A DNA stretch of 64,000 nucleotides from a bacterium (GCA_021813505.1 JAKAKI010000071.1:45-64044), one strand, 5' to 3'; counted from the first letter of the stretch, positions 1 through 61,834 are shown. Translations and numbers: made by a program. Notes: generated from the letters alone by a model not told the origin.

Positions 1-348
1 ATCCAACGGGTGCCTGGCTCCCCACTTGGAACTCACCCCCAGGTTATTGGCCGACCGACCACTGAGGGCACGCGGGAGAACGCGCCTCACCCCAGTCCGG
101 GATGGCAGGTGTTACCTCCGCCGGGTGCGCGTGGCCGCAATCTCTGATTGCGGACGGCCGGAGGCCGGCGTGGTGTGTGCCCGCGGGATGTAGCATTGTG
201 TGTCCGCATTCCTTGCTTCCAACTAATGTCATACATCAACCACCCCACTTTCTTCTTGACATCTGGAATATCTGCCGCCTTCGTGGGTATGACTGGGTGT
301 AGAGGCAGTGCGCCGACAACTAAATACTTAACCGAAGGGAGGGGACCC

Positions 349-3300
349 ATGGTTACACGCAAGGCCGTCATCACGGCGATGTTGGTGCCGTTGGCGGTGT
401 GCACACTATTGGCCGCTGGCGGTTCCGGCGGGCCGCCGCCAACCCAGAAGGATCTGGAGCGGCGATTTCAGGAAGGGCGGATTCCAAGTCCGCTGGACCG
501 ACTTCGTGACACAACTCATCGTCCGATTAATCCAAGGGCGCTGGCGGCACTTCATAGGCTCCAGGAGGCGAGTCATCAGCGATGGCAGGTGAAGTGGGAT
601 ACCACTACTGGCTGTCAGGCCGGGCTAACCGGCGGGCGCTGCTGGGGACGGGGGGCTACACGTCGGGAGCAGGCCGCCAACTTCCTGCACGATTACTTTG
701 ACCTGTTCTGGCAGCCCGATTCCAAGTACAAAACCCCCAAGCCCGAACTGAGGTTTGAGCTGGATCGGGCTGGAGGGATAAGCTTCAACGCGTATTCCCA
801 AGGTTTGGAAGTGTTCAATGCAAGGCTCGTTGTGTTGTTTACTCGCGATGGGGAAATCAGTGCGATAAACGGTCGCATCCCGATAGTAGGAAAGACGGAG
901 TTATCCCCGAAGTTGAGTCCTGAAGCTGCTTGTGCAAACGTGCTGAGATCCGGGAGGGTTTCTCCCGATTCACGGATTCCCGACGCCCCCCACCTACTAA
1001 TCTATCCATCTCGCCCGCCTCGGTTGATGTATTCTGTGTTTGTGGAGTTTGGTCCGCACTTGCTTGTCGATGCCGATACTGGTGAAATCTACCCCGGATT
1101 CTGGGCTGGACCTTCCAAATATCAAGCAGCGGTAGAGGGACTTAACAAGGGGGCTGCGGCCAGCGTATTACCTGATTCTGCTTTGCGAAACCGACTTGGC
1201 GTTCCCCGGCCATCGGTTCCAACCTCCTTGGAATCGGTCATGGAGAGGTCCCGGCGCGTTGATGGTCGTGAACCGCATTGGCATGAGCCGACACCTCACC
1301 CACTTTCGGCACCAGTGGTTTCAACCCGCGAAACGAGCGGGGGTCATGAACCCGCCGCCATCGTGAAAAGGCTGACTGGGACAGAGGCGACTCGCGCCGA
1401 CTCTGCCCATCGGCGGTTGACAGACAATCACCTAATCTCCTATTCCATCGACGACATCGCTGTAGTTTACAGCCTAGACCTTGACGGCGACGCGTATTCA
1501 AGAGACGCCCAACTCGGTGTGGACATCGATCTCAGCCCTCCCAGCGCCAACGCCGTCCTGTATCTCGAGGTATTCGGGCGCGAACCGGCCTACGGGGGCA
1601 CGGTCCTGATCCAGACAGGGCAGTTTCCCGTCATCGGCGCTGACAACGTCTACGAGCGAGTTCCGCTCTCAGATTTTCCTCACGGCGGTTGGGACTTCCG
1701 AATCGATGTATACACATACGATGGTACGTGGGTTGCCTCCTCCACATATGGGCAGTTCCCTGGAGCTACTTCCGTCGCCCTGGAAACCGCGTACCAGGAC
1801 GCTGTGTTCCAAGCCTACGGCGCGTATGCGGATCAGGAGTTGAGGGACTGGAACGGAAACGGTTACAGTTGCACCGTTCAGTTGGACTGGGCGATCCGAA
1901 CCGACGACGGCACACACTCGATATGGAGCGACTTCTACATCTCGGATGGCGTGACAGAGTGGTTGTTACCGACAACTCAACCCTACGTGGTCGATACGGG
2001 CCATGCCTGGCATCACCTCTTGATCGCGGGCAAACCTCACGGGCACTACGGAATCCGTATGATACTCAGGGAGGCGGGCACCAATCAGTTTCTACGAGAG
2101 TTTCACTACGGTGAGCTCCTCAACTGGACGAACATTCCCTTGGAGACTGGCCGGGAGGACCGGGGGCCGTCCCAGGTATTTGACCCGAATCCGGTGAATG
2201 TGCTCAACAATCCATGCCTGTGGGATCACCACGACTCAGTTTCAGCGGTGCCATCCACCGCATACTCTCCCGTCGACCTGGACAGCCTGAATGAGCCACC
2301 ACTTGATGACGGATTCTATCACCTCTCTGGAGCATACGTCAGCATCATAGAGATAAACCCTCCAGCTGTCTCGCCACCCCTGATGCCCGGCGCCTCGTAC
2401 GCGTACACCAGAGACGAGACAGGATTTGAAGCGACGATGGCCTATTATCACATAACCAGGAGTCAGGAGTACATCCAATCCTTGGGCTTGGGATACGACG
2501 TTTGTAACCGGCAAGTGCCGGTGGATGTGTTTGCCAATCGAGAGAAACCGGACGAGGCTTCCGCCTACTTTCCTAACCTGACGGGCACCGGTTTTATAAC
2601 TTTCGGCCTGAACGGGTACGGCGGTACCCCAGGTGTTGACAATGCCGAGGATGCAGATGTCATTATGCATGAGTACGGGCATGCGATCGTAGACAACGTC
2701 GCACCCCTCACCTTCAGCCTTGCGGGCAACAGCGTTCAATCCCGATGGATGGACGAAGGATTCGCGAACTATTGGGCGGGCTCGTCTGTGTTGGAAGGGA
2801 GTGTGGCACATGGCTTTCCACCGGAGTATATTGGAGAATGGTATGTGAAGAACACACCAGGATGCCAGCCTGAATACTGCTCATATGGCGACCTTGAAAA
2901 CAACTGGACGTACACGAGTATTCCCTGCTGCCCGTTTGACTCCACGGCGGAGCACCGCGATGCCCAGCCATGGGAGGGGGCACTGTGGGATATGCTTCAG
3001 GCCCTCGGAAAGAACAGCGCAGACAGGATAATAATCGAGGGGTACAAGGAGTCGAGGGGACTCGTCGATCCATCGGTTCTTGACGTTGCACGACGATTCC
3101 TCGCTGCGGATACGCTCCTTTACAGCGCGGCCCACGCACAACAGATCATCAACATCTTCACCGCACGTGAATTCTACCTGATTCCGACCTGCAACTGCCC
3201 GCTCCAAGGGGACATCAATGCCGACTTGGCGATAGACTTGTTCGACGTGATCGCCTGCATCGGAATCGCATACAGCGGCGATCTTGATCCTCAGGACGCC

Positions 3301-3423
3301 GCCTGTCCAACAACACGGGGCGACGTCAACAACGACGGCACGACCGATACTTTTGATGTAATCTATCTCATCGCCACCGCGTTTAGCGGCGGACCGAATC
3401 CGATAGGCCCATGCGCGCCGTGA
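349..3423 (+). CDS. secreted zinc metalloprotease (HExxH) with propeptide-like N-region and C-terminal dockerin-like double repeat
   Basis: Long ORF 148..3423. Preferred start is ATG 349, preceded by a GGGAGGGG purine run and followed by a signal/lipoprotein-like peptide (MVTRKAVITAMLVPLAVCTLLAAG). HEYGH at nt 2668-2682 is followed by MDEGFANYW. The C-terminus (nt ~3190-3420) has two GD(I/V)N.D...D.FDVI...SGG repeats. Confidence 0.8.
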   Translation: MVTRKAVITAMLVPLAVCTLLAAGGSGGPPPTQKDLERRFQEGRIPSPLDRLRDTTHRPINPRALAALHRLQEASHQRWQVKWDTTTGCQAGLTGGRCWGRGATRREQAANFLHDYFDLFWQPDSKYKTPKPELRFELDRAGGISFNAYSQGLEVFNARLVVLFTRDGEISAINGRIPIVGKTELSPKLSPEAACANVLRSGRVSPDSRIPDAPHLLIYPSRPPRLMYSVFVEFGPHLLVDADTGEIYPGFWAGPSKYQAAVEGLNKGAAASVLPDSALRNRLGVPRPSVPTSLESVMERSRRVDGREPHWHEPTPHPLSAPVVSTRETSGGHEPAAIVKRLTGTEATRADSAHRRLTDNHLISYSIDDIAVVYSLDLDGDAYSRDAQLGVDIDLSPPSANAVLYLEVFGREPAYGGTVLIQTGQFPVIGADNVYERVPLSDFPHGGWDFRIDVYTYDGTWVASSTYGQFPGATSVALETAYQDAVFQAYGAYADQELRDWNGNGYSCTVQLDWAIRTDDGTHSIWSDFYISDGVTEWLLPTTQPYVVDTGHAWHHLLIAGKPHGHYGIRMILREAGTNQFLREFHYGELLNWTNIPLETGREDRGPSQVFDPNPVNVLNNPCLWDHHDSVSAVPSTAYSPVDLDSLNEPPLDDGFYHLSGAYVSIIEINPPAVSPPLMPGASYAYTRDETGFEATMAYYHITRSQEYIQSLGLGYDVCNRQVPVDVFANREKPDEASAYFPNLTGTGFITFGLNGYGGTPGVDNAEDADVIMHEYGHAIVDNVAPLTFSLAGNSVQSRWMDEGFANYWAGSSVLEGSVAHGFPPEYIGEWYVKNTPGCQPEYCSYGDLENNWTYTSIPCCPFDSTAEHRDAQPWEGALWDMLQALGKNSADRIIIEGYKESRGLVDPSVLDVARRFLAADTLLYSAAHAQQIINIFTAREFYLIPTCNCPLQGDINADLAIDLFDVIACIGIAYSGDLDPQDAACPTTRGDVNNDGTTDTFDVIYLIATAFSGGPNPIGPCAP

Positions 3424-3514: not shown

Positions 3515-3556
3515 CCCGTCCTGCTCCAGTGAGCGGGACGGGCTTCGTGTTTTCGT
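3515..3556. terminator. hairpin terminator shared by convergent genes
   Basis: CCCGTCCTGCTC-CAGT-GAGCGGGACGGG (12-bp stem with one T.G pair) at 3515-3542, with T-rich tracts on both strands. It lies between the stop at 3423 (+) and the stop at 3573 (-). Confidence 0.55.
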
Positions 3557-3572: not shown

Positions 3573-4379
3573 TCAGCGCTGTGACGTTGGCGCCGGGCCC
3601 CAGCGGCGGGCTTTGCTGATCGGGATCGTGAGGCGCGTGTGCGCCGCATCGGAAGCCTCGATCGTCATCGACTTGTTGAACAAGTCTTCTGCGATGCTCT
3701 GCTCGAACTTGAATCGGAATGTTTTCTCGCCCCCGGCGCTGACGCTTTTGTTCTCTGGGAAATCGACCTCGACGTATTTGTCGGGGCGCGAGACAATCGT
3801 GAATTTCAAATCCTCATTCGTGATGTTCTTGATTTTGAACTCGTAATTCCACGGGTCCTTCTGGTCCTGCGGACGATTGGCGTCGAGATCCACCTGCGGG
3901 GGCGTCACATGAAAGACACTGACCGAGTCGGGATTGGCCATCACGTCGACCACCAGCGTCAGCCGGGGAATATTCCCGGCCGCGTTGCAGAGAATCTGGG
4001 CGCTCTTGCGCGTCTTGGACGTGTAGTGCCCGGTTGAGAAAATCAGTTCGACCTTTGAGCTGTCACCGACAGCCAGCTCCTTTTTTTCAAGCGGAGCTTT
4101 TGTGCATCCTCACCCAGGCTTGACATCGGTGATACGCAAAGTATCCTCACCGATGTTCTTGATCCAGAACACGTGGGAGATGGTCGATCCCTGCGGCACC
4201 CGCCCGAAATCGAACTCCTCCGCCGAGACCGCTACCCGCGGCAGCTTGGCCCCGACCGGCGCGGCCTGATCGGTCTGCGGCGGCGGCTGGGCCGGAGGGT
4301 GCTGCGCGAATGCGGGCGCTGCCGCCAATGCGGCCACCCCTGCGTACGCAAGCAACCTGGACAACAATCTGTGACTCAT
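3573..4379 (-). CDS. secreted DUF1573-domain protein with a single in-frame TGA (candidate selenocysteine; alternatively a nonsense pseudogene)
   Basis: Track ORFs 4110..4379 and 3573..3953 are in the same frame, and I found no other stop between them on manual translation. The N-terminus is a signal peptide (MSHRLLSRLLAYAGVAALAAAPAFAQ). The DUF1573 signature FDFGRVPQGSTISHVFWIKNIGEDTLRITDVKPG-[TGA]-GCTKAPLEKK matches the paralog ...LEITKLVPN-C-GCTEAPLEKK. Merged length is 268 codons versus 276 aa for the paralog. Confidence 0.6.
4059..4109 (-). promoter_or_regulatory. two stem-loops immediately 3' of the in-frame UGA (candidate bacterial SECIS)
   Basis: Minus-strand RNA reads UGA-GGAUGCACAAA-AGCUCC-GCUUGAAAAAAA-GGAGCU-GCUGUC-GGU-GACAGC. 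The first stem (+ coords 4075-4098) starts 12 nt after the UGA and its apical loop begins with G. The second is a perfect 6-bp stem with a GGU loop (4059-4073). Confidence 0.35.
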
Positions 4380-4517: not shown

Positions 4518-5348
4518 TCATTTCGTCTTCGCCCCCGTGCCGCCCGGCTTGCTCCCCCAGGGCGCTTTCTGGAAGATCGGCAGCGTAACCCGGGTGGTGT
4601 CGGCGCCGATGGCTTCGAAGGTCACCGACTTGGAAATGACGAGCTTGGGCAAATCCGGCTCGAAATGTAACAGTATTTGTCTTTCTTCACCGGCGCCCAG
4701 CCGGCCGGAGAAATCGTTGCAGCCCACCTGGCGGTCGGGCCGCTCCACGATGTTGATGGCCAGCGGCGATTTGGTGATGTTGCGCAGCTTGACCACAGTG
4801 TTCCAGCCATCGCGGGCCGAATCGGCCATCTGCAATCCGAGGTCGACCGAACGGGGCGTCATGGTAATCGATCCGGTGGGCTCCGAATCCGCGGCAACAT
4901 GGGAGCGAAACGTCAGTGCGGGAACCCGTCCAGCCGCATTCGACTCGATCTGGACAAACTTCTCGACAAACCCATGGTAGAGCCCCGAACCAAATGCGAT
5001 TTCAACCCGGATGCTGTCGCCCGGCGCTGCATGCTTCTTCTCCAGCGGGGCCTCCGTGCAGCCGCAGTTGGGCACCAGTTTGGTAATCTCCAACGGTTCA
5101 TCCCCAGTATTGCGAAGCCAAAAGACATGGGACACCACCCCTTTTTCAGGGACGATCCCAAATGGGAAGATCTCCTCGGCAACCTTGATTCTCGGTCCCC
5201 GTTTCGCGCTTCCCGTCTGAGCATCCGCACAGGAGTTTAGGAGCAGAACGATTGCGAGAATCGCACCGGCCTGGAACGCCGGAGTCGTCAAGGGCCGCAC
5301 CCGCCGCGATAAGCCGCTATCCCACAATTGCATAGGCCTTTGATTCAA
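4518..5348 (-). CDS. DUF1573-domain lipoprotein (Cys-containing paralog of 3573..4379)
   Basis: TTG start at 5348 with GGGAGG 5 nt upstream. Lipobox-like LLLNSC. DUF1573 signature FPFGIVPEKGVVSHVFWLRNTGDEPLEITKLVPNCGCT. Confidence 0.8.
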   Translation of the reverse strand: MNQRPMQLWDSGLSRRVRPLTTPAFQAGAILAIVLLLNSCADAQTGSAKRGPRIKVAEEIFPFGIVPEKGVVSHVFWLRNTGDEPLEITKLVPNCGCTEAPLEKKHAAPGDSIRVEIAFGSGLYHGFVEKFVQIESNAAGRVPALTFRSHVAADSEPTGSITMTPRSVDLGLQMADSARDGWNTVVKLRNITKSPLAINIVERPDRQVGCNDFSGRLGAGEERQILLHFEPDLPKLVISKSVTFEAIGADTTRVTLPIFQKAPWGSKPGGTGAKTK

Positions 5349-5580
5349 GATACCTCCCGTCGAATTCGTACCAGCTCAAACATCCCTTATACCCCCATTC
5401 GGCGCTCCCAATAAGCCAGACCAGTGAAAGTGATTCAACGATTGATATTTTCGGTTGCGTCCGGGACAAATGTTCAGTATTGGGTATGTGCGCCCTGACC
5501 AGTGAACTGCGCGTGAGGGGTTTCGCTGACGTAACGTAGGACCAGGCCAATCGACAACCCGGATGAAATGGAGAAGCGTC

Positions 5581-6201
5581 ATGACTATCAATAAGTTACC
5601 TCTCACCGAGCGCCAGCGGGAGATCTACGAGTTTATCCGCGAGGCGGTTCACACCGAAAGCCGCCCGCCTACCATGCGTGAAATCGGTGAGCGTTTTTCC
5701 ATCAGTTCGACCAATGGGGTTCGTGAAGCACTTGAAGTACTGGAGAAAAAGGGGTACATCCGCCGCCAGCCGTTCCTTTCCCGGGGCATTGAACTTGTGG
5801 AATCAGTGCCTGCGCCCGCTGACGTGATCCCGATTGTCGGCCGGGTCGCCGCCGGATTGCCACTCTTGGCGGTGGAAAACATCGACGGCCACATCGCAGT
5901 CGACCAGTCGTTCCTCCCCTCCGGAGAAGTCTTCTCGCTTCGGGTTACCGGTGAGAGCATGCGCGACGAGGGAATCAAAGACGGCGATCTCGTTTTGGTG
6001 CGCAAACAGGAGAGCGCTCAAAAAGGAGATATCGTTGTGGCCGTCATCGGCGAGGAAGCGACCGTGAAACGGTTCTATCCCGATCGAAGCCGCGTTCGCC
6101 TGGAACCGGCCAACCCAGATTTTGGACCGATAATCGTTGATCGCCGCGCGCCGGGATTCTTCATCGCCGGCGTGGTGGTCGGACTCCTGCGCCGCATGTG
6201 A
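5581..6201 (+). CDS. lexA: LexA repressor (S24 autopeptidase)
   Basis: N-terminal wHTH (LTERQREIYEFI...PTMREIGERF), Ala-Gly cleavage context VAAGLPL, catalytic Ser in GESM, Lys in VKRF. ATG 5581 has GGAGAA 5 nt upstream; the track ORF starts at 5563. Confidence 0.9.
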   Translation: MTINKLPLTERQREIYEFIREAVHTESRPPTMREIGERFSISSTNGVREALEVLEKKGYIRRQPFLSRGIELVESVPAPADVIPIVGRVAAGLPLLAVENIDGHIAVDQSFLPSGEVFSLRVTGESMRDEGIKDGDLVLVRKQESAQKGDIVVAVIGEEATVKRFYPDRSRVRLEPANPDFGPIIVDRRAPGFFIAGVVVGLLRRM

Positions 6202-6351: not shown

Positions 6352-7179
6352 TCAACAGGGTGGCTGGCCACCGCTGAAGGCGTAGTCAATCAAGTAGATC
6401 AAGTCGAACACGTCAGTGACGAGGTCGCAATTGACGTCGGTGAGATTATTCGGGCATGCGGGTGGCCCTCCGCTGAAGGCGATGTCGATCAACTGGACGA
6501 TATCGAAAACATCAACCACGATGTCCGAGTTAATATCTCCCCGCGTCGTTGGAGTGATCGTCACCGACCCGGAAGTGAAATCGGTCGGCTGGATCAGAGT
6601 CCCCTTGGGATCGCTGAAGTAGGATCCCACGATATTCGCGGTCACGAACACGGTGCGGTCCTGCAAGGTGTCCGGTATATCGCAGAACACGTGCCCGATC
6701 ACCTTGATCAGCACCCCATTGGTGTAGGGCAAAATCGGCAGCGGCAGCCGGTCGAAGTTGTTATCCACGATCCCGGTAAGTTGCAGGTCGAATGTGCCGT
6801 AGGTTCGCGCCTGCACGTAATCCCAGTTGTAGGTCAGTGTGCCGGCGCTCGAGGATGGCACCACGGCCACGGTACAGGGATAGGCCACGACGGAGGTGCA
6901 CGCGGCATTGGAACACTTGTAGCAGGTTTGCACCATTGTATCGGCAGTGAACTCCATTATGTCCGGCCTTGAAAGCGTCAGCGACAATTGGAATCCGGCG
7001 ATGGAATCACCCATGTTCTGGAGATACACCGTGAGGGGCACAACCGCACCGGGAGACACCGACGTATCGGCAACATCCAGGTAGAGCTTTGGCGTCTGCG
7101 CCCGAGCCGGCTGTGCTCCGTGGATCACGATCAACACAACCACACCGATCCACATCAAGCAAGGCAAACGACGGAACAT
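6352..7179 (-). CDS. secreted protein with N-terminal cohesin-like module and C-terminal dockerin-like double repeat
   Basis: ATG 7179 has AAGGAGAG upstream. Signal peptide MFRRLPCLMWIGVVVLIVIHGAQPARAQ. Cohesin-like segment LYLDVADTSVSPGAVVPLTVYLQNMGDSIAGFQLSLTL. C-terminus reads GDINSDIVVDVFDIVQLIDIAFSGG...TDVNCDLVTDVFDLIYLIDYAFSGG (nt ~6355-6552). Confidence 0.75.
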   Translation of the reverse strand: MFRRLPCLMWIGVVVLIVIHGAQPARAQTPKLYLDVADTSVSPGAVVPLTVYLQNMGDSIAGFQLSLTLSRPDIMEFTADTMVQTCYKCSNAACTSVVAYPCTVAVVPSSSAGTLTYNWDYVQARTYGTFDLQLTGIVDNNFDRLPLPILPYTNGVLIKVIGHVFCDIPDTLQDRTVFVTANIVGSYFSDPKGTLIQPTDFTSGSVTITPTTRGDINSDIVVDVFDIVQLIDIAFSGGPPACPNNLTDVNCDLVTDVFDLIYLIDYAFSGGQPPC

Positions 7180-7733
7180 GGGGCTCTCCTTACCTTCTTG
7201 GGACATGACATTCGCGCAATTGGCATCGCACAACGGGTTCGCCCCTGCCGTACGCCTGGCACGCCCAATTGATCGACTTGACTCCGTTGATCGATCGACA
7301 TGCCACACCGAGATGGTCCCAAAGCTCTCGGACCAGCGCCTAACTCTAATTATCGAACCAACGCCAGTTCCCCTATAGCACTACTGCCTACGACGAGGGT
7401 AACGTTGGTCCAAACAACCGAGCGCTTTGGGCTATGACATCTCCTGCGAGCGAACCAGCTTCTGATTGTACAATTCCCCGGGCAATCTCGCACCAAGGCA
7501 ATAGAGGTATCGTCGTTAGAGCCCGAATCGGAACTTCCGACCGGGACAATCAAGGGGTAATCTAATCACTCCTAACGATTTGTCAAGCCGATTTACCGAA
7601 AAGTTGCGCGGCCAAGATGAGACGCGATTCGCTATCTGTACGCACCGGCTCGAAGAGAATCCTGCGATCAGGCAAATTGCGACATTCAACCCAGCTCTTG
7701 CACAGCTCGTCGCGTGAGCGACGGCCCAATACC

Positions 7734-43974: not shown

Positions 43975-44470
43975 GAGGGCGCCCACGCCACATGCGCGGC
44001 AACGCGCGCCGTCAAAGCGCCCTCACCCCCGGCCCCTCTCCCAGAGGGAGAGGGGAGAAAAGCTTCCCGTTGGCACAGTTCGCGTAGCACAGTTCGGGTA
44101 GCACAGCTCGGTAGCACAGTTCGGGTAGCACAGTTCGGGTAGCACAGTTCGGATAGCACAGTTCGGATAGCACAGTTCGGATAGCACAGTTCGGATAGCA
44201 CAGTTCGGTAGCACAGTTCGGATAGCACAGCTCGGTAGCACAGCTCGGTAGCACAGTTCGTGCACCTCACGGCTGCCTGCTCCCTCTCCCTCTGGGAGAG
44301 GGTTGGGGTGAGGGCGTTTTGGGAGCGGCAGATCCGAATGTGGCCGGGTGCCCCACAACTCGCTGTGGGTCGACTTCCGCACGCACAAGGCGCACTTGTG
44401 CACAAGCTGGCGCCCACAGCAAGCTGTGGGGCGCCAAATTCCACGCGGGCGAGGGCGCCCGCGCCACATG
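43975..44470. repeat. composite mosaic of nested palindromic modules upstream of thiL
   Basis: Modules, in order: GAGGGCGCCC.CGCCACAT; GCCCTCACCCCCGGCCCCTCTCCCAGAGGGAGAGGGG; a tandem array; the inverted copy CCCTCTCCCTCTGGGAGAGGGTTGGGGTGAGGGC; then GGTGCCCCACAACTCGCTGTGGG...CCCACAGCAAGCTGTGGGGCGCC (44347-44435). The same modules recur at 46603-47354. Confidence 0.85.
44071..44260 (+). repeat. tandem repeat, 14 units of 13-14 nt (consensus G(A)TAGCACAGTTCG(G))
   Basis: Counted directly, unit by unit, over 44071-44260. Variants include GTAGCACAGCTCG, GATAGCACAGTTCG and GTAGCACAGTTCGG. No spacers. Confidence 0.95.
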
Positions 44471-44565
44471 CACTCGCCTCCCCGCCTCCATTCCCGATTG
44501 ACCCATCGCGTCATCCGATTGTTATTCACATCTGTCGTCCGGTGTCGGGCGACGATCGGACTCCC

Positions 44566-45585
44566 ATGCGTCCCGGCGAATTCGAATGGATTGAACAACT
44601 GGCGCGCCGCTTCGGCAGCGGTGATCGCGGCGGTGGCCTGATCGGCATCGGCGATGATGCCGCCATCATTCCGTTCGGTCCATCCGTCGCTGATGAGGCG
44701 CTCGCGATCTCGGTCGATGCACAGGTTGAGGACATACACTTCCAGCGCGGCTGGATCGGCTTTCACGATCTCGCACGGCGGCTGGTCCACGTCGGATTCT
44801 CGGACATCGCGGCGATGGGCGCCGCCCCGCTCTATGCACTGGTCTCAGTGGAAGTCGGCCCGGAGATCGGCGAGGACGATCTGGCCGCATTTACCGAAGG
44901 CATGCAGATTGGATTGCGTGAGTTGCCCGCGGAGCTGATCGGCGGGAATGTTTCGGCGCGTGCCGGCGGTTTCTCGGCGCACATCACGGCCATCGGGCGA
45001 CAGAAACGCCAGTTGATGCTGCGCCGCAATGGCGCGCATCCGGGCGATGGCATCTATGTCACCGGCAAACTCGGTGCCGCCGCCGCTGCGATTCGCGCGT
45101 TCACTTCTGTCAAGGACGCATCGCTCCCCATTCCTCCAGCCCTGATTGATGCGTTTCGAAAACCACGCGCGCATATCCGCGAAGGACTGATTCTCGCGGA
45201 ATCCGGCTGGGCGACGGCGGCGATTGATATCTCCGACGGATTGCTCCCCGACCTCGGTCACATTGGCAAGGCGAGCGGTACCGGCGCGACTCTCGATCTG
45301 GACCACCTGCCGATTTCCGATGCGCTGCGCGCCTGGATGCCGAACGATGTCGCCGGCGCCGAGGTGCTGGCGCTCACCGGTGGCGAGAACTATGTTCTCC
45401 TGTTTACCGCGGCCAACAATCCCGCCAAAGAAGCGGAAGCAGCCCGCCGGTTTGCAGAAGCGGGTGGGCAATTCTGGCGAGTTGGCACAATCACTGCCGA
45501 GAAGCACATGGTTGGACTGCGGACCGGGCGGGAAGTCCCGCTGCCCACCGGGCGATTCGATCATCTGCACGGACCACTACCTTAG
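44566..45585 (+). CDS. thiL: thiamine-monophosphate kinase
   Basis: EFEWIEQL, GIGDDAAI, SVDAQVEDIHF, GFSDIAAMGAAP, IGGNVS, PGDGIYVTGKLG. The track ORF (from 44260) reads through the repeat mosaic, so ATG 44566 was chosen. Confidence 0.85.
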   Translation: MRPGEFEWIEQLARRFGSGDRGGGLIGIGDDAAIIPFGPSVADEALAISVDAQVEDIHFQRGWIGFHDLARRLVHVGFSDIAAMGAAPLYALVSVEVGPEIGEDDLAAFTEGMQIGLRELPAELIGGNVSARAGGFSAHITAIGRQKRQLMLRRNGAHPGDGIYVTGKLGAAAAAIRAFTSVKDASLPIPPALIDAFRKPRAHIREGLILAESGWATAAIDISDGLLPDLGHIGKASGTGATLDLDHLPISDALRAWMPNDVAGAEVLALTGGENYVLLFTAANNPAKEAEAARRFAEAGGQFWRVGTITAEKHMVGLRTGREVPLPTGRFDHLHGPLP

Positions 45586-46032: not shown

Positions 46033-46551
46033 ATGAGTGTGCAAATCGGCCAGCCCGCCCCGGAACTGCAGGGCCAGGCGCTAGTCAACGGCGAGATCAA
46101 GGAATTCAAGCTCTCCGACTTTCGCGGGAAAAACTGGGTGGTGCTGTTTTTCTACCCGCTCGACTTCACCTTCGTCTGCCCGACCGAAATTCGCGGCTTC
46201 AACGCGCATTATGGCGAATTCGAGAAACTCGGTGTCAAAATTGTCGGCGCGTCGGTCGACTCGGTCTACTCCCACAAGGCGTGGGTGCAAGCCGATCTCG
46301 GACCGCTCAAGTTCCCGCTCTTCGCCGACATCACCAAGGACGCTTCGCGCTCCTACAATGTCCTGAAAGAGGACGCCGGGATCGCGCTGCGCGGTACGTT
46401 CATCATCGATGACAAGGGCGTCGTGCGCTCGATCGTGGTCAATGATCTCGGCACCGGCCGTTCGGTCGACGAGACCTTGCGCACAATCGCGGCGCTGCAG
46501 ACCGGCAAGAACACGCCCTGCGAGTGGAAGCCGGGACAGAGCACGCTGTAG
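46033..46551 (+). CDS. typical 2-Cys peroxiredoxin (AhpC/Tsa family)
   Basis: FFYPLDFTFVCPTEI peroxidatic Cys motif, and a resolving-Cys context TPCEWKPG near the C-terminus. GGAGGA 8 nt upstream of the ATG. Confidence 0.9.
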   Translation: MSVQIGQPAPELQGQALVNGEIKEFKLSDFRGKNWVVLFFYPLDFTFVCPTEIRGFNAHYGEFEKLGVKIVGASVDSVYSHKAWVQADLGPLKFPLFADITKDASRSYNVLKEDAGIALRGTFIIDDKGVVRSIVVNDLGTGRSVDETLRTIAALQTGKNTPCEWKPGQSTL

Positions 46552-48000: not shown

Positions 48001-51000
48001 ATGAAACGCATGCTCTGGCTCGTTGTCCTGGCCGTCCTGCTGTGCGGTACCACAGCCATGGCTGCCAACTCGGTCGTCGTGGAATCGAAGAGCGTCGCCC
48101 TGAACGCTAAAGGCGTGACGATCGGCGTTTTCGTCTCTAACGACGTCGCAATAAAGAATGTCGTCATCCCACTGGAACTTCGCTCAACTAACGGCGGAGC
48201 GTTCGTCGATAGCATGAAGCGTTCGTTCCCGACTGGTACACGCCTGGACGGTAAACTTACCGACATTCGCATCTCCAACCAACTCGATAGTGACAGCATT
48301 GGCACGTGCAAGCAGAACCAGCCCGGCGGTTACGCACGGATCATTAGCCCGGATGTCGATTCGATGATTCGGGTTCTCGGCTCCCCAGTGGCGGCGTTTT
48401 TCACTTATGGAAAGATCTTCGGCCCCGACCTCCCCGCTGGCGCAGATGGCCCGACAGCTCCCCAACTTCTAATGACGGTCAATGTGAACGGCCTGAACGG
48501 CCAGTTCATTGTCGACACAACCTGCACCAACCCGGCGAACCACTTGGTGTACGCCAGATCGACCGGCACTCCGGTCCAACTCATGCCTTCATTTACTGCC
48601 GGCGAGATCACGGTCGGCACTCCGATTCCGGATAATAGCGCCCCGGTCGCATCGGATACGACGGTGACCGGACCGGAAGACGCGAACATCAACGTGCCGC
48701 ATCTGCCGGCAACGGATGTCGATGCCGGACAAATCCTGAGCTACTTCCCGACCATCATGCCACAACATGGCGTGATCGGTGTGATGAATGGATCGACCGG
48801 CCAGTTCGTCTATACACCGAATTCCAACTACTGCGGCCCCGATTCGCTCCAGTTCATGGTTTGCGACAACGCCCCTTCCCCACTGTGTGCGACGGCCTGG
48901 GTGCATATCGATGTCACCTGCGTCAATGACGCGCCGGTCGCCAGCGACCGCGTCGTTTCGACTAACCAGAACACTCCTCTTCCTGTAGCGGCATTAACCG
49001 CAACTGATCCCGATGCCGGACAGACAAAGACATTTGCGATTCTGAGCGGACCATTCCACGGAACAGCTGACGGATTCAACTCTGCGAACGGCAGCTTCAC
49101 CTACAATCCGGCCACTGGATACTCAGGTCCTGATTCGCTCAAATTTACTGTCTGCGACGATGGCGTCCCTTCGAAGTGCGATACCGGCACGGTCCGCATC
49201 ACGGTCATCGCGGTCAACCAGCCGCCCGTGGCGATTTGCCGAGATGTCACCGTGAACGCCGGCCCGGCTTGTACAGCGGCGGCGGACGTCGACAGTGCGT
49301 CGTACGACCCGGACGGTGACCCGCTCACAAAGACATACACGCCTGCCGGTCCATATCCGAAGGGCGTTACTCCGGTCAAATTGGTTGTCGACGACGGCAA
49401 AGGCGGCAAGGATTCTTGCAACGCCAGTGTGACGGTCATCGACGCGACTCCGCCGGAGATTGCCTGCCCAACGAATGTCACCGCATACACGACGGCCGCG
49501 GGCTGCGACACGCTGATCACCTTCTCGGGTGCGCGCGCGGCGACCGCCACCGATAATTGCTCTGGCCTCGGCACGATTACCTACACGGCCCCCGGTGTCA
49601 CGATTAGCGGCAACCCACCCTCCGGCGTCTTCCCGCTGGGCACGAAGACCGTGACCGCGTCGGTGACCGACGGCGCCGGCAACACGGTGCAATGCCAGTT
49701 CAACGTAACGGTGAGCGATGTCCAGAAACCGGTCGTGGGCTGCCCGGGGAATATCACCCAGGGCAACGATCCGGGGCAGTGCGACGCGGTCGTGACGTTC
49801 TTCATTTCGGCCTCGGACAATTGCGCGATGGGCTCAATCGTTGCCACACCGCCATCGGGCTCGACATTCCCGAAAGGCACCACGCCGGTGAATGTTGTTG
49901 CGACCGACGCCGCCGGCAACAAAGACAGTTGCACGTTCAATGTGACCGTGAATGACACCACCAAGCCGGCGATCACCTGCCCGATCGATTATCAACTTAC
50001 GACCGAGCCGGGCCTGTGCACAGCGACTGCCACTTTCAGCCCGTTTGCGACGGACAATTGCCCTGGTCCGATCACGATCAGCTCGGTGCCGCCGTCAGGA
50101 TCGTCGGTTCCCAAAGGCGACAATCTCATCACGGTAACCGCGACCGATGCCTCCGGCAATCAGCAGTCGTGCTCGTTCCACGTTACCGTGATCGACAATG
50201 AAAAGCCCGTCGTTACCTGCCCGCCGACGGTGGTCGTGAATGTTCCGCACGGTTCCACAAGCGGGATCGCCACGTATAGTCCCTCCGTCTCCGACAACTG
50301 TCCTGGGGCTGGGATTGTCGCGACGCCTGCGTCAGGTTCGAGCTTCCCGCTGGGATTGAGCGACGTGAAAGTGGTGGCGACCGACGCCGCCGGCAACAAG
50401 GATTCATGCACATTCCAGGTAAGCGTGGAGGTCGGCAACTCGCCGCCGGTCTGGGATCCGGCACCGGCCCAGTCGGTCAACGAAGGCGTTAATCTGAACT
50501 TCAATGTTGCCGCGCACGATTTGGACGGAGACAATACGCTCACTCTGTCCGCGATCGACAAGCCGGCCGGCGCCAATTTCACCGACAATGGCTCGGGCAG
50601 CGGCACGTTTGACTGGACCCCGTCCTGCGCGCAGGGTGGGTCGGACTATCACGTCAAGTTCATCGCGTCGGATGGAAGCGTCGCCGAGACTGTGGATGTT
50701 GCGATTACGGTCAATGACATTCCAGAATCGCTGGTCGCGAACCCGAACTCGGTCAACTTCAACTATCAGATGGGTGCTCCGGCCCCAGCCCCGATTCCGG
50801 TCAGCCTGACCGATCCGGGTTGCAGCGGCCAGTTCTCCTGGCAGGCCTCATCCGACGCTCCCTGGCTCATCGCTGACGCCGACACCGGCACCACGCCATC
50901 GAATGTGAATGTCATAGTGGTTGCGGGCGTTCTCGGTGAGGGTGATCATACCGGCACCGTCACTTTCGGCGCGCGCGTCGCGAACAAGGCGAACTTCGTG

Positions 51001-53250
51001 CCCGTCAATTCGGTCACGGTTCACATCCACGTCGGTCCGGCCCCGCACGACTCAGTGTGGGTGACCAACGGCTCCGGCAAGCTGGGTGACACTGTGAGCC
51101 TCGACGTCAACTTCTGCAACAACCACGAAGCGACCGGCATTTCGGTCGGCTTGAAGTACTGGCCGCACATGCACTCGATCGGCGCCAGCTTTGCCGGTTC
51201 GCGCGTGGAGGGCATCAACTTCACGAGCGCCACGATCAACACCGTGGAACGCACGATCTGCATCGCGGCGATTCCGCTCCCGTCGGAGCCGCGCATCGCC
51301 GAGGGTTGCGGCAAGCTTGTGACGTTGTTCTTCGTCTATGATTCGGCCGGATATTGTCCGTTCCCGGAAAGCTCGATGGTCGAGGCGTTCCCGGTTCCCC
51401 CGGGCTGCTCGACGATGCTGACCGACACGCTTCTGGCGCAGGTCGTCCCGTCGTTCGTCCCTGGTATGATCAGCCTGATCTGCCCGCCGCGCATCTGCGG
51501 CGTCGTGACGGATCAGAGCGGCGCCCCGCAGCAGAACGCGGTGATCCAGCTCTGGAGTTCGTATCCGTCGGGCAGTGTCCTTGGCTCAGAGATCAGCGAT
51601 CCGTCTGGCAACTTCTGCCTGAGCAATCTGCCGGGCGCCGGTCCGTTTGATCTGCGCATCTTCCTGCCGAACCACTGCACCAAGATCATGACGGGTGTCG
51701 GCCCGACCGGCGAGGGTTCGCTCGACGTCGTGCTCGACCAGCTCCCGGCCGTGCCCACCGAACCGAGCTTCGCGTGGTACTGGTCGGATATCGCCGCGAT
51801 CAGCGGCGTGCCGCTATTGCCGGGCGACGTGATCACCGCGGTCGATCCCAACGGCATCGTGTGCGGCAAGACGACCGTGACTCAGGATGGCAAGTACAAC
51901 ATCTACGTTATGGGTGATGACGTTACCACGCCGGGCACGGACGAAGGCGCCCACTCTGGCGATTTGATCACTCTTTACTTGAATTGCACCTGCGCTCTGC
52001 TCGCCCCCGGAACCTGGACGGCGATGACGGGAACGCAGTTTGACGCCAACTTCGACTGCTCGTCGAAGGCGGTGGACATTCCTCTGTGCGACCCGTGGAC
52101 GCTGTTCTCCTTCAACGTGACCCCGGCCAATCCGTCGCCGGCGTCGGTGCTGTCGTCGATCGCGGGCCAATACCAGATCGTGTTCACCTCGACTTGCGCC
52201 TACGGTCCGTTGTCCTGGGATGCCAGCCGTCCGTTCAACGATCTGACCTCGATGGATCCGTTCCATGGCTTCTGGCTGAAGACCACGGGTGCGGGCGTCG
52301 GTCCGATCAGCCTCTCCGGAGTTCCCGTGCCGGTGAGCACCCCGCTCGACCTGTGCGAAGGCTGGAATCTGATCTCCTACCTGCCGGATGTTCCGGACAC
52401 GTTCAGCCACGCGCTGGGCTCGATTGACGGCGACTACTCGCACGTGTTCGGGTTCGAGTGCGGCAAGGGTTACGTGTCGTGGGATGCCAGCCGCCCGGCG
52501 TTCTTAAACGACCTGACGTGCATGCGTCCGCTGATGGGTTACTGGTTGAAGACCTCGGTCAACACGACCCTCACCTACCCGTCGGCCGGATACACCTGCA
52601 ACGAAGGCGCTCCGATCCTGAGCAAGCCGGTCAATCTGCTGGCGAATGTCACCACGACACCGTGGGTGGCGGACTTCTGGTCCGTGGCCAATAGCAGTGT
52701 GAGTGGCATTCACTCCGGTGACAACCTGACGGTCCGCACCTCTGCCGGCGTGATCTGCGGCGAGTGCCTCGCCGGTTCCGACGGCGCGTTCCTGGTCCAC
52801 GTCTACGGCGATGATCCGTCGACGGCCCAGGTCGAAGGGGCGGTCAAGGGTGAGGCGCTGACGTTCGAAATCAACAACGCCCCGGCGTCTGTCCAGTCCG
52901 GTTCGGTCGTGTGGAACGAGCGTGAGTCGGTGAAACTGGCGCTGGTCGCCGGCCAGTCGGGCGCGGTCCCGTCGGACTATGCGCTCTTGCAGAACTACCC
53001 GAACCCGTTCAATCCGTCGACGGTCATCCGGTTCCGTCTGCCGGCCGCTGCGGACGCCAAGCTGACGATCTACAACGTGCTTGGCCAGACCGTGCGCGTG
53101 CTGTTCAACGGCAATCTGTCCGCTGGTGAGCACTCGTACGAATGGAACGGCCTGAACGAAAACGGCGAGTCGGTCCAGAGTGGAATCTACTTCTACCGCC
53201 TGGAGACACCGTCGTGGGCCGATTCCAAGAAGATGACGTTCCTGAAGTAA
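48001..53250 (+). CDS. giant secreted multidomain adhesin-like protein with T9SS C-terminal sorting domain
   Basis: AAGGAGG 9 nt upstream and a signal peptide (MKRMLWLVVLAVLLCGTTAMA). Domains, in order: two cadherin/VCBS-like repeats (APVASD...TDVDAGQ); ~5 HYR-like repeats (nt ~49216-50420; D..KP...CP...C.A...F...A.DNC...GT..V...A.D..GN...C.F.V.V); a cadherin-like module; a BACON-like segment; a cohesin-like segment; a CarboxypepD_reg-like segment; and a CTD (NYPNPFNPSTVIRFRLP...GIYFYRL, nt ~52981-53247). Confidence 0.88.
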   Translation: MKRMLWLVVLAVLLCGTTAMAANSVVVESKSVALNAKGVTIGVFVSNDVAIKNVVIPLELRSTNGGAFVDSMKRSFPTGTRLDGKLTDIRISNQLDSDSIGTCKQNQPGGYARIISPDVDSMIRVLGSPVAAFFTYGKIFGPDLPAGADGPTAPQLLMTVNVNGLNGQFIVDTTCTNPANHLVYARSTGTPVQLMPSFTAGEITVGTPIPDNSAPVASDTTVTGPEDANINVPHLPATDVDAGQILSYFPTIMPQHGVIGVMNGSTGQFVYTPNSNYCGPDSLQFMVCDNAPSPLCATAWVHIDVTCVNDAPVASDRVVSTNQNTPLPVAALTATDPDAGQTKTFAILSGPFHGTADGFNSANGSFTYNPATGYSGPDSLKFTVCDDGVPSKCDTGTVRITVIAVNQPPVAICRDVTVNAGPACTAAADVDSASYDPDGDPLTKTYTPAGPYPKGVTPVKLVVDDGKGGKDSCNASVTVIDATPPEIACPTNVTAYTTAAGCDTLITFSGARAATATDNCSGLGTITYTAPGVTISGNPPSGVFPLGTKTVTASVTDGAGNTVQCQFNVTVSDVQKPVVGCPGNITQGNDPGQCDAVVTFFISASDNCAMGSIVATPPSGSTFPKGTTPVNVVATDAAGNKDSCTFNVTVNDTTKPAITCPIDYQLTTEPGLCTATATFSPFATDNCPGPITISSVPPSGSSVPKGDNLITVTATDASGNQQSCSFHVTVIDNEKPVVTCPPTVVVNVPHGSTSGIATYSPSVSDNCPGAGIVATPASGSSFPLGLSDVKVVATDAAGNKDSCTFQVSVEVGNSPPVWDPAPAQSVNEGVNLNFNVAAHDLDGDNTLTLSAIDKPAGANFTDNGSGSGTFDWTPSCAQGGSDYHVKFIASDGSVAETVDVAITVNDIPESLVANPNSVNFNYQMGAPAPAPIPVSLTDPGCSGQFSWQASSDAPWLIADADTGTTPSNVNVIVVAGVLGEGDHTGTVTFGARVANKANFVPVNSVTVHIHVGPAPHDSVWVTNGSGKLGDTVSLDVNFCNNHEATGISVGLKYWPHMHSIGASFAGSRVEGINFTSATINTVERTICIAAIPLPSEPRIAEGCGKLVTLFFVYDSAGYCPFPESSMVEAFPVPPGCSTMLTDTLLAQVVPSFVPGMISLICPPRICGVVTDQSGAPQQNAVIQLWSSYPSGSVLGSEISDPSGNFCLSNLPGAGPFDLRIFLPNHCTKIMTGVGPTGEGSLDVVLDQLPAVPTEPSFAWYWSDIAAISGVPLLPGDVITAVDPNGIVCGKTTVTQDGKYNIYVMGDDVTTPGTDEGAHSGDLITLYLNCTCALLAPGTWTAMTGTQFDANFDCSSKAVDIPLCDPWTLFSFNVTPANPSPASVLSSIAGQYQIVFTSTCAYGPLSWDASRPFNDLTSMDPFHGFWLKTTGAGVGPISLSGVPVPVSTPLDLCEGWNLISYLPDVPDTFSHALGSIDGDYSHVFGFECGKGYVSWDASRPAFLNDLTCMRPLMGYWLKTSVNTTLTYPSAGYTCNEGAPILSKPVNLLANVTTTPWVADFWSVANSSVSGIHSGDNLTVRTSAGVICGECLAGSDGAFLVHVYGDDPSTAQVEGAVKGEALTFEINNAPASVQSGSVVWNERESVKLALVAGQSGAVPSDYALLQNYPNPFNPSTVIRFRLPAAADAKLTIYNVLGQTVRVLFNGNLSAGEHSYEWNGLNENGESVQSGIYFYRLETPSWADSKKMTFLK

Positions 53251-53311
53251 CCCGATGGAAACGACAGGACAAATGATGTCATCGAGACAAACAACCAGAG
53301 ATTCAAAGGTC

Positions 53312-53340
53312 CCGTACCCCGCCAGCCAGGCGGGGTACGG
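53312..53340 (+). terminator. perfect 12-bp GC-rich hairpin after the giant gene
   Basis: CCGTACCCCGCC-AGCCA-GGCGGGGTACGG. There is no U-tract, so it may be an attenuator or stabiliser rather than a full terminator. Confidence 0.45.
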
Positions 53341-53371
53341 CCCGGCGAGTCCAGCCAAAGGGGTGTTAAAC

Positions 53372-54679
53372 GTGAACAAGGCACTGGGAAGTTTCGTGAG
53401 GGGCGCCTTGGTAGCGGGGATTGTACTGGTCACGGCTTCGTCCGGATGGGCGCAGGTCGCCGGCTCAGTTGTGAATGACGTCGGAACGGCCGTGCCGGGT
53501 GCGAGAGTCGAGATCTGGAGCACTTATCCCGGCGGCTCAATTCTGAACGCCGGGAATACAGACGGCGCAGGGGCATTCTCCCTGCCCTCCCCCGCCCCGG
53601 CGAATTTCGACCTGCGGGTCTACAAGCCGACTGCCGGCAAGCCGGAATTCTACCCGTCGGTCATCCGCAATCTGGCCAAGCCCGTGACCAACGTGCTCGC
53701 CATTCTCTCTCCGCTGGGCAGTGTCCTGGCTTCTCCCGAAGTGCGGAGCTACTGGGACACGACGTCGACCTTCCTCGGCAGCCGTCTGAAAGCCGGCGAT
53801 GTGCTGGAGGCGTATGATCCGACCGGCGTGCTGTGCGGCTTGGCGGCATCTGCCGGCAATGGCGGATTCATGATGTATGTGGTCGGCGACGATGGGATGG
53901 CGGATGGGATTCATGAAGGACCGTTCGCCGGCGAGACGATCGACTTCAAGATCAACGGCCTGCCGGCCGAGACACCGGTCGTGTGGTTCCCGCTCGGCAA
54001 TTCTCAAAATCATCACCTGGCCGGTTCGAACATCGCGTACGGCGTGACCGCAATGGGAGCGGCGGATGCCGACGGACAGCAAGGGACCAACGCCCTGCTT
54101 TCGTTCCTGTTCACCAACACCGGTTCCGTAACCGATTCGTTCACCTACTCGGCGGCTATCCCGACGGGCTGGCTGATTACCTATCCGGTGGCGAAGCTGC
54201 CCAGTCTCACGCTGGCGGCGGGCGCCACAGCGTCGGTCGATATACTGGTCCACATCCCGCCGGGAACCCCGGATCAGACGGTGATCGTGACGTTCGAAGC
54301 CTCTTCGCGCTCCCTGGGTACGATTGCGGCGGGCGTGACCACCGAACTGTCGGTGACCACACCGACCGACGTCGCTTCGGGCGATGGCGGGCTTCTGCCC
54401 TCCCAGTTCGCGCTGGCGCAGAACTATCCGAATCCATTCAACCCTGAGACGGAGATTTCCTTTAGCCTTCGGGTGGCGGGGCATGTTCGCCTCGAGATCT
54501 TCAATCTGCTCGGCCAGAGCGTGGCGGTCCTGGTGGACGGGTATCGTCCGCAGGGCGTGAGCACGGTTCATTGGGATGCTCACGACGCACGTGGCAATGT
54601 GGTGCCGACCGGTATCTACTTCTACCGGTTGACGCAGGACAATCTGTCGCAGGTCCGCAAGATGGCCCTGCTCAAGTAG
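53372..54679 (+). CDS. secreted protein with CarboxypepD_reg-like domain and T9SS C-terminal sorting domain
   Basis: GTG 53372 gives the signal peptide (M)NKALGSFVRGALVAGIVLVTASSGWAQ and lies downstream of the 53312-53340 hairpin; the track ORF starts at 53255. CTD reads NYPNPFNPETEISFSL...GIYFYRL (nt ~54408-54676). Confidence 0.8.
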   Translation: MNKALGSFVRGALVAGIVLVTASSGWAQVAGSVVNDVGTAVPGARVEIWSTYPGGSILNAGNTDGAGAFSLPSPAPANFDLRVYKPTAGKPEFYPSVIRNLAKPVTNVLAILSPLGSVLASPEVRSYWDTTSTFLGSRLKAGDVLEAYDPTGVLCGLAASAGNGGFMMYVVGDDGMADGIHEGPFAGETIDFKINGLPAETPVVWFPLGNSQNHHLAGSNIAYGVTAMGAADADGQQGTNALLSFLFTNTGSVTDSFTYSAAIPTGWLITYPVAKLPSLTLAAGATASVDILVHIPPGTPDQTVIVTFEASSRSLGTIAAGVTTELSVTTPTDVASGDGGLLPSQFALAQNYPNPFNPETEISFSLRVAGHVRLEIFNLLGQSVAVLVDGYRPQGVSTVHWDAHDARGNVVPTGIYFYRLTQDNLSQVRKMALLK

Positions 54680-61252: not shown

Positions 61253-61834
61253 CCCAGGCCGCAGGCCTGGGTCGGGAGCGTGGAAATCACAAGCCCTGAA
61301 AGGGCGTCATAATCTCAATCCCACACGTACCGCTCGTCAAACGCGACACCGTATTTCTCCAACAATCTCCGCAACTCCTCTTGAAACGAAACCGACTGAT
61401 GGTGCTCAGCCTGCGCTGCGATATAGTCCTTCACTCGAGGTGCGTGCGATGGCGACACTGAAAACGCTGCATAGCCATTCTGCCAGTGGAATCGCGACAA
61501 ACGATCGCTTCTCGTCTTCAGCCATCTCGATGTAGCTGTCTTCAACTTCTCAACCAGCTGCGCAATCGTGAGGGTCTTGGGCATTATGCACAGAATGTGA
61601 ATGTGATCTGTCGATCCGCCGACCTGGGCTGACGGGCAATCAATATTCCGCAATACCGTTGCGGCATATGGCCATAATTCGCGCGCGACATCATCTGAAA
61701 GGCACGGCTCACGTCCTTTCGTGCTAAACGTGATATGCACGGTTATCTTCGCCAACGATTGCGACATTCGTTATAACGCCCTTTCAGGGCTAACGATTGT
61801 TTGGCGAGGCCGGTACCCAGGGCTACGCCCTGGG
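61253..61834 (-). mobile_element. IS200-like/RAYT (Y1 HUH transposase) gene bracketed by ~65-bp inverted two-hairpin modules
   Basis: Left flank: CCCAGGCC-GCA-GGCCTGGG (61253-61271) and GCCCTGAAAGGGC (61293-61305). Right flank: GCCCTTTCAGGGC (61778-61790) and CCCAGGGC-TAC-GCCCTGGG (61816-61834). The flanks are reverse-complement-related in order and spacing. Confidence 0.7.
61315..61767 (-). CDS. IS200/IS605-family Y1 transposase-like protein (REP-associated tyrosine transposase-like)
   Basis: ITVHITFSTKGREPCL, HUH motif HIHIL, catalytic Tyr context WQNGYAAFSVS; 150 aa. Confidence 0.85.
   Translation of the reverse strand: MSQSLAKITVHITFSTKGREPCLSDDVARELWPYAATVLRNIDCPSAQVGGSTDHIHILCIMPKTLTIAQLVEKLKTATSRWLKTRSDRLSRFHWQNGYAAFSVSPSHAPRVKDYIAAQAEHHQSVSFQEELRRLLEKYGVAFDERYVWD

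Follow-up and report, generated by a model that had tools for sequence, protein, structure and literature searches.

An in-frame UGA at the first Cys position of a DUF1573 CGC motif is a probable selenocysteine codon in Zixibacteria-type bacteria

The window analysed here, a bacterial DNA stretch of 64,000 nucleotides, contains on its minus strand a DUF1573 gene interrupted by an in-frame UGA (4112-4110), and we conclude with high confidence that this UGA is a genuine selenocysteine (Sec) codon. The original prediction had placed a Sec codon on the leading Cys of CGC, beside a Cys paralogue, and this proposal is supported by TGA/TGY alternation among homologues, by the pattern of selection, by conserved hairpins and by independent assemblies. 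In the explanation that we consider very likely as a whole, the region 4379..3573 would be a single functional gene encoding a secreted DUF1573 protein with two Ig-like domains, and its UGA would be decoded as Sec, which would give the first domain a U-G-C motif within a tight turn. Recoding would be steered by an mRNA element within the coding sequence (hairpins 4098-4075 and 4073-4059), and the recoded motif would provide a reactive selenolate/thiol pair. If other bacteria are a guide, the two-hairpin element would be the binding site of SelB with its Sec-tRNA(Sec), and both SelB-dependent Sec insertion and export of the protein by the Sec pathway are steps that we infer. The features are collected in Table 1.

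Table 1. Features of the DUF1573 locus in the window
Feature	Position	Strand	Description
Putative selenoprotein CDS, complete	3573..4379	minus	268 codons including Sec90; stop 3575-3573; from translation and Pfam
In-frame UGA, probably read as Sec90	4110..4112	minus	Position 1 of U-G-C; pairs with the Cys of the paralogue and of Cys forms
Signal peptide, predicted Sec-type	4305..4379	minus	Residues 1-25 (MSHRLLSRLLAYAGVAALAAAPAFA, followed by Q); inferred from sequence by eye
DUF1573/HYDIN-like Ig domain	3948..4229	minus	Residues 51-144, holding U90-G91-C92; Pfam PF07610, PF22544
Second Ig-like beta-sandwich domain (modelled)	3606..3932	minus	Approximately residues 150-258; from the model of the Cys orthologue P0004
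SECIS candidate hairpin 1	4075..4098	minus	AGCUCC, 12-nt loop GCUUGAAAAAAA, GGAGCU; begins 11 nt past the UGA
SECIS candidate hairpin 2	4059..4073	minus	GCUGUC, GGU triloop, GACAGC; 1 nt beyond hairpin 1
Likely terminator of the selenoprotein transcript	3515..3542	.	12-bp G+C-rich hairpin, convergent genes on either side
Tandem Cys paralogue, upstream	4518..5348	minus	276 aa, DUF1573, Cys-Gly-Cys; first Cys codon TGC 5066-5064

Reading frame and the in-frame UGA

Translation of the minus strand showed that the frame from 4379 to 3573 contains the TGA at 4112-4110 as its sole internal stop, in the context ITDVKPG-(TGA)-GCTKAPLEKKELAVGDS. The ORFs called at 4110..4379 (89 aa) and 3573..3953 (126 aa) are pieces of this single frame, as had been proposed. 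The start ATG (4379-4377) is preceded by AAGGA at 4390-4386. When U was treated as C, the read-through product matched the tandem paralogue with 42% identity (BLASTP, E 8e-56). The alignment was ungapped over the motif, and the TGA therefore falls on the first Cys of CGC, exactly where the original prediction had placed it. TGA serves as an ordinary terminator in 14 of the 37 called genes of the window, including those ending at 3421-3423 and 6199-6201, in line with the standard code that had been assumed.

A blind split-gene scan of the window was also tried and set aside. It returned 105 TGA sites with at least 60 open codons on each side and no real gene pair, and it was uninformative in a sequence with a G+C content of 59%.

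The hairpin at 3515-3542 was reported by the scan of the plus strand, and the T-run UUUCUGCUUUG comes after it when the minus strand is read. T-runs are present on both strands, and the M36 peptidase gene and the selenoprotein gene converge on the hairpin, which is likely a bidirectional terminator.

TGA/TGY alternation among homologues

A protein search retrieved many fragments of 157-173 aa that cover only the C-terminal part, together with full-length Cys forms containing VKPGCGCTKAP, and a profile search added ~21 further clusters of N-terminal fragments (79-111 aa) ending before the CGC motif. Orthologue DNA was fetched, and the fragment pairs were rejoined and read across the TGA. A TGA at the exact Sec90 codon was found in 23 distinct orthologous sequences with 45-96% protein identity to the window protein, a recurrence that greatly exceeds what chance would produce. 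The two fragments in these sequences always lie in one frame and exactly one codon apart, and that codon is aligned with Cys. The motif context of the Sec forms is [VI][KRV]PG-(TGA)-GCTKAP, the 23 orthologues carry no further lesion, and they match the window gene in length and architecture. Nearly all named records of Sec forms are Candidatus Zixiibacteriota metagenome-assembled genomes (MAGs), and two are labelled Ignavibacteria or Acidobacteriota.

The TGA/TGY alternation that the original prediction had called for at the Sec90 column is thus present, with 23 TGA sequences versus 20 distinct Cys-form sequences. The opposite pattern, uniformly Cys orthologues combined with additional lesions in this copy, was not seen. 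The paralogue clade (LVPNCGCTEAPLE) has TGC or TGT at this column without exception. Furthermore, the identical 807-nt gene with its TGA is present in three ENA samples and in GCA_027349185.1, and its occurrence in these four independent assemblies excludes a sequencing error. Locus L031 holds a divergent Sec copy with 45% identity in a different gene neighbourhood.

One MAG contains two different Sec DUF1573 genes on separate contigs, L026 (JACRMA010000089.1) and L019 (JACRMA010000080.1), each of which adjoins a Cys paralogue. The N-terminal fragments of these genes are entered at NCBI as 'DUF1573 domain-containing protein' (P0097) and as 'hypothetical protein' HZB43_10550 (P0113).

Selection and evolution

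The all-pair mean values of pS and pN among the Sec forms were 0.63 and 0.17 in the 38 codons before the UGA, and 0.63 and 0.24 in the 45 codons after it. Synonymous divergence is therefore near saturation, and nonsynonymous changes are few both before and after the TGA. The low pN after the TGA indicates that the C-terminal part is translated and selected. In codons +1 to +17 after the UGA, pS drops to 0.29.

A TGC or TGT codon becomes TGA by a single-base change, so that a decaying pseudogene hit by a nonsense mutation, or an error of sequencing or assembly, would be a simple origin for the stop. However, the TGA recurs in 23 distinct orthologues with pS of ~0.63, low pN on both sides and no other lesion, and the sequence is the same in each of the four assemblies. 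We regard the probability of a defect or an error as negligible, and the comparative data have already refuted both.

In a neighbour-joining tree, the Sec forms constituted one clade with at least two Cys lineages nested inside it, and the paralogue clade was uniformly Cys. This pattern is the usual dynamic exchange between Sec and Cys. One of the nested Cys lineages, at locus L020, is a near-identical tandem duplicate in which both hairpins described below are retained. The two copies at this locus (2006 and 3002; JAVHPP010000077.1) differ in that one carries TGA and the other TGC, and both hairpins are still present in the TGC copy. The pair looks like a very recent duplication with conversion of Sec to Cys or of Cys to Sec.

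A third Cys, C131 (ILCNAAG; 3987-3989 on the minus strand, 41 codons after Sec), is present in 21 of 22 Sec forms. Most Cys-form relatives have Ser in this column, among them all three members of the older Cys lineage inside the Sec clade. Exceptions are L021_7779, a Sec form with Ser, and L020_3002 and P0011, which are Cys forms with Cys. C131 could be a resolving partner for Sec90, or it could reflect mere shared ancestry.

A conserved two-hairpin RNA element after the UGA

A stem-loop downstream of the UGA, which the original prediction had suggested searching for, is conserved in the 23 sequences and leaves a footprint at synonymous sites. All Sec forms share the same layout of UGA, 11-nt spacer, hairpin 1, one linker base and hairpin 2, and RNAalifold recovered both hairpins from the Sec-form alignment. 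Standard pairs occupied 276 of 276 pair cells (23 sequences, 6 bp per stem), as opposed to 29-58% when the partners were slid. The stem of hairpin 2 was invariant in the 23 sequences, and variation was confined to the third loop base (GGN). In hairpin 1, the pair at the base of the stem alternates between A-U and G.U among the Sec forms, and one compensatory change from U-A to A-U was found in L014, at the price of a change from E to V in the protein. The strong conservation of the element leaves little covariation, and this change is its single compensatory pair. Both stems were also kept in the divergent copy L031, where the hairpin-1 loop and its encoded residues (LEAT) differ. Hairpin 1 of L025 can be extended by one C-G pair, as read from the aligned sequence.

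The synonymous-site footprint is the strongest evidence for the RNA element. The third-position entropy of degenerate conserved codons was 0.51 in codons -2 to +17 versus 1.05 elsewhere (p = 3e-4), and the entropy of fourfold sites was 0.54 versus 1.48 (p = 2e-4). The constraint follows the proposed structure within this region. Paired third positions showed an entropy of 0-0.26, save for 0.99 at the base pair of hairpin 1 that alternates between A-U and G.U, whereas third positions in the loop and linker varied freely (1.3-1.7). The Cys-form homologues showed high entropy at the same third positions, and the footprint was absent from them. For example, the residues AVGDS, which are encoded by hairpin 2, use other codons in Cys forms, such as GCGGTGGGCGACAGC in L021. 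TGC lineages tend to lose the hairpins.

The folding energies of the individual hairpins were -9.8 kcal/mol (z -2.8) for hairpin 1 and -8.4 kcal/mol (z -3.3) for hairpin 2, and a 96-nt fold gave a z of -1.25. The energy of a 57-nt segment did not separate Sec forms from Cys forms (-18.6 versus -17.5 kcal/mol, p = 0.18), and folding energy was dropped as evidence for the element on this account. The case rests on the conserved identical structure and on the synonymous constraint.

Comparison with published SECIS models

We compared the element with the bacterial SECIS consensus constraints of bSECISearch, as summarised in PMC13188914. The consensus has a loop of 3-9 nt, a stem of 4-16 bp, a distance of 16-37 nt from the UGA, a G within the first two loop positions and a minimum free energy (MFE) of at most -7.5 kcal/mol. 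Hairpin 1 lies at an allowed distance (17), has a 6-bp stem and a sufficiently low MFE, and carries the G in 21 of 23 sequences, but its 12-nt loop is too large. Hairpin 2 agrees in its GGN loop, stem and MFE, but the loop lies 42 nt from the UGA, which is too far. A search of Rfam (release 15) gave no match on the minus strand of 3950-4200 at E values up to 10, and none at the gathering score in the whole window. Since each hairpin fails one consensus constraint and Rfam gave no match, we labelled the element an atypical SECIS candidate, conserved and composed of two hairpins.

The candidate resembles the SECIS of the Escherichia coli fdhF type in that a stem-loop lies inside the coding sequence right after the UGA, with the first stem 11 nt on. 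In addition, the first loop base is G, the stems have 6 bp and each hairpin is below -7.5 kcal/mol. It differs from the E. coli type in having two adjoining hairpins instead of one. A further reading, which we consider speculative and rather unlikely, is that the Zixibacteria-type signal constitutes a distinct SECIS class and serves an Ig-fold selenol/thiol envelope module that is paired with a tandem Cys paralogue. In such a class, the GGN triloop at 42 nt may be what SelB binds, with hairpin 1 as a spacer that brings it within range.

Domain architecture and fold

The read-through protein matched Pfam PF07610 (DUF1573) over residues 51-144, spanning the UGA, with 90.1 bits (gathering threshold 26.1, E 9.6e-26), and it also matched PF22544 at 69 bits. 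The CGC motif is invariant across diverse DUF1573 members. An AlphaFold2 model of the Cys orthologue P0004 (pLDDT 87) showed two beta-sandwiches, and the motif occupies a tight turn at the centre of the first one. A Foldseek search with this model returned Ig/ASH/PapD-like domains and 2qsv and no thioredoxin fold. The match to the single-domain structure 2e6j had a probability of 1.0 and a TM-score of 0.34 when normalised by query length and 0.73 by target length. Sequence searches of the PDB were uninformative, and our search for DUF1573 literature found virtually none.

The position of the motif bears on the question of whether the UGA is a true stop. The gene product would then be a secreted fragment of 89 residues, perhaps accompanied by a separate C-terminal protein, and the hairpins would serve pausing or mRNA stability; public gene calls, which give two separate proteins, agree with such an arrangement. 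However, the split would halve one beta-sandwich in the model. The C-terminal piece has no signal peptide and no conserved start, as gene callers chose TTG, CTG, ATG or GTG at codons that differ among the orthologues. The pieces are also always in frame and separated by one codon that aligns with Cys. With starts that vary in this way and a motif in the middle of a sandwich, two separate polypeptides would make no structural sense, and we judge termination at the UGA to be very improbable.

The Sec forms and several of the Cys forms retain the tail RRWGPAPTSQR (3576-3608, minus strand), which diverges in a subgroup of Cys forms and in the LVPNCGCTE paralogue. This tail could be a sorting or processing signal.

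Possible function of the U-G-C motif

Decoding of the UGA as Sec would place a selenolate and a thiol two residues apart on a predicted exported protein, and their function can be read in two ways. We see roughly even chances that Sec90 and Cys92 form a reactive selenolate/thiol pair for redox exchange in the cell envelope rather than for metal binding. Such a pair would form a reversible selenenylsulfide and act in redox chemistry, either thiol-disulfide exchange or a different reaction, and the tandem Cys paralogue may act alongside it. Alternatively, U-G-C may bind a soft metal or metalloid (Cu(I), Hg, Ag, As or Zn) on a secreted Ig-like scaffold, with a role in sequestration, delivery or sensing and not as a catalytic redox centre; we treat this alternative as possible but somewhat doubtful. 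Vicinal Cys/Sec pairs bind thiophilic metals, and this chemistry favours a metal site. The modelled fold is of a binding type and not an oxidoreductase fold, and no gene for a redox partner lies nearby, which both point in the same direction. On the other hand, metal-resistance or transport genes are not consistently adjacent, and peptides with C-G-C are redox-active mimics of disulfide isomerase. Reviews of selenoproteins also describe most known bacterial members as redox proteins, which again speaks against a metal site.

The DsbA-like, DsbG-like and thioredoxin-like selenoproteins (PMC9312934) resemble the window protein in being secreted or periplasmic, in having Sec near a Cys and in having Cys homologues. 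However, they have a thioredoxin fold with UxxC or CxxU, as opposed to the Ig-like beta-sandwich with UxC predicted here. The HYDIN/ASH/PapD-like Ig domains (PF22544; PDB 2e6j; 2qsv from Porphyromonas gingivalis) share the fold of the window protein, but they are structural or binding modules without known Sec.

Relation to the OS_HP2 family and public annotation

The original prediction had taken Sec in DUF1573, if real, as a mark of an exported thiol/selenol redox module in a family of no assigned function. The assignment of the Sec codon to the first Cys of CGC was borne out, whereas the novelty was overstated, as both the family and the Sec position are already catalogued. In two reviews, the prokaryotic selenoprotein families include a 'DUF1573 domain-containing protein, PF07610, motif UGC', which is credited to Zhang & Gladyshev 2007 (PMC1976440), a study of the Olavius symbiont metagenome that named the family OS_HP2. 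The NCBIfam model NF041425, 'OS_HP2 family (seleno)protein', has a cut-off of 100 bits, and the window protein reached 76 (E 2.2e-21) over profile positions 2-93 of 98. This score under the cut-off places it in a diverged branch, as a relative outside the trusted range. The two share the Pfam domain, Sec at position 1 of C-G-C ('UGC') and the existence of Cys homologues. They differ in origin, with Zixibacteria-type MAGs here and delta-proteobacterial symbionts of Olavius there, and the branch of the window protein is distinguished by a second Ig-like domain, the RWGPAPTSxR tail and the tandem Cys paralogue. The gene is best described as an added member of a catalogued selenoprotein family, with unusually clean comparative support.

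Public MAG records enter the gene as two short fragments named 'hypothetical' or 'DUF1573' (e.g., P0097, P0113, P0029 and P0119), probably because this branch scores below the NF041425 cut-off. Rebuilding NF041425 would bring back dozens of genes and mark Zixibacteria-type lineages as users of Sec. The sequences also provide a clean natural data set on an off-consensus bacterial SECIS, comprising 23 Sec forms, Cys revertants nested among them and one Sec/Cys pair from a very recent duplication. A selenoprotein in DUF1573 does not overturn current understanding, but it would strengthen the case that the invariant CGC of this widespread domain is a reactive centre.

Sec machinery and the inserted residue

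We searched for selA, selB, selD and tRNA-Sec and found none in the 64-kb window or in the annotated related loci; loci L005-L026 were scanned for tRNAs only. A literature search on the use of Sec in Zixibacteria returned nothing relevant.

Recoding without Sec has to be weighed at this point. Some bacteria are known to recode UGA to Cys by means of selC-like tRNAs. Here, a SelB-delivered, tRNA-Sec-like tRNA(Cys) with a UCA anticodon could insert Cys, or a near-cognate tRNA could read through the UGA with stimulation by the hairpins. The conserved UGA and hairpins point to recoding and not to the residue that enters, and the outcome of the gene search above agrees with this scenario. However, the UGA takes the place of the first Cys in a motif already catalogued as the UGC of selenoproteins. 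For the mere insertion of Cys, a TGY codon would suffice and would spare the cost of a recoding element, and lineages that switched to TGC do exist, with a tendency towards hairpin loss. We consider recoding to a residue other than Sec quite improbable, and Sec remains our preferred assignment for codon 90.

Two further candidates for the Sec system in the window were rejected. The ORF at 44260-45585 has AIR-synthase domains and was considered as selD, but NCBIfam identified it as thiL (227 bits versus 37 bits for selD). The peroxiredoxin at 46033-46551 (plus strand) was considered as a second selenoprotein, but its peroxidatic residue is Cys (FTFVCPTE). The best NCBIfam match of this 2-Cys peroxiredoxin was the PrxU selenoprotein model, with 155 bits against a cut-off of 270. 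Directly upstream of the thiL ORF as called, a tandem array at 44073-44260 consists of 13.7 copies of a 14-nt unit (GCACAGTTCGGGTA) with 91% matches.

Gene neighbourhood

The neighbours of the DUF1573 pair are genes for M36 and M48 peptidases, lexA and a two-component system, and they give no pointer to redox chemistry. The lexA gene (5563-6201, plus strand) is divergent from the DUF1573 pair, and the same arrangement was found in most Zixibacteria loci (L001-L004 and L027-L030) and is absent from L031 and L032. A search with a repeat tool found no LexA-box-like palindromes in the promoter regions, including the one shared by lexA and the DUF1573 genes.

Elsewhere in the window, the products of 148-3423 (plus strand) and 6352-7308 (minus strand) are secreted proteins with C-terminal dockerin-like D-x-N-x-D repeats and a terminal Cys or Cys-Ala-Pro. 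The latter also gave a weak sub-threshold match (E 0.006) to the C-terminus of the NCBIfam 'Omp28-related selenoprotein'. Furthermore, the regions 48001-53250, 53255-54679 and 61315-61767 hold genes for two large proteins with T9SS type A C-terminal sorting domains and an IS200-like (Y1) transposase gene.
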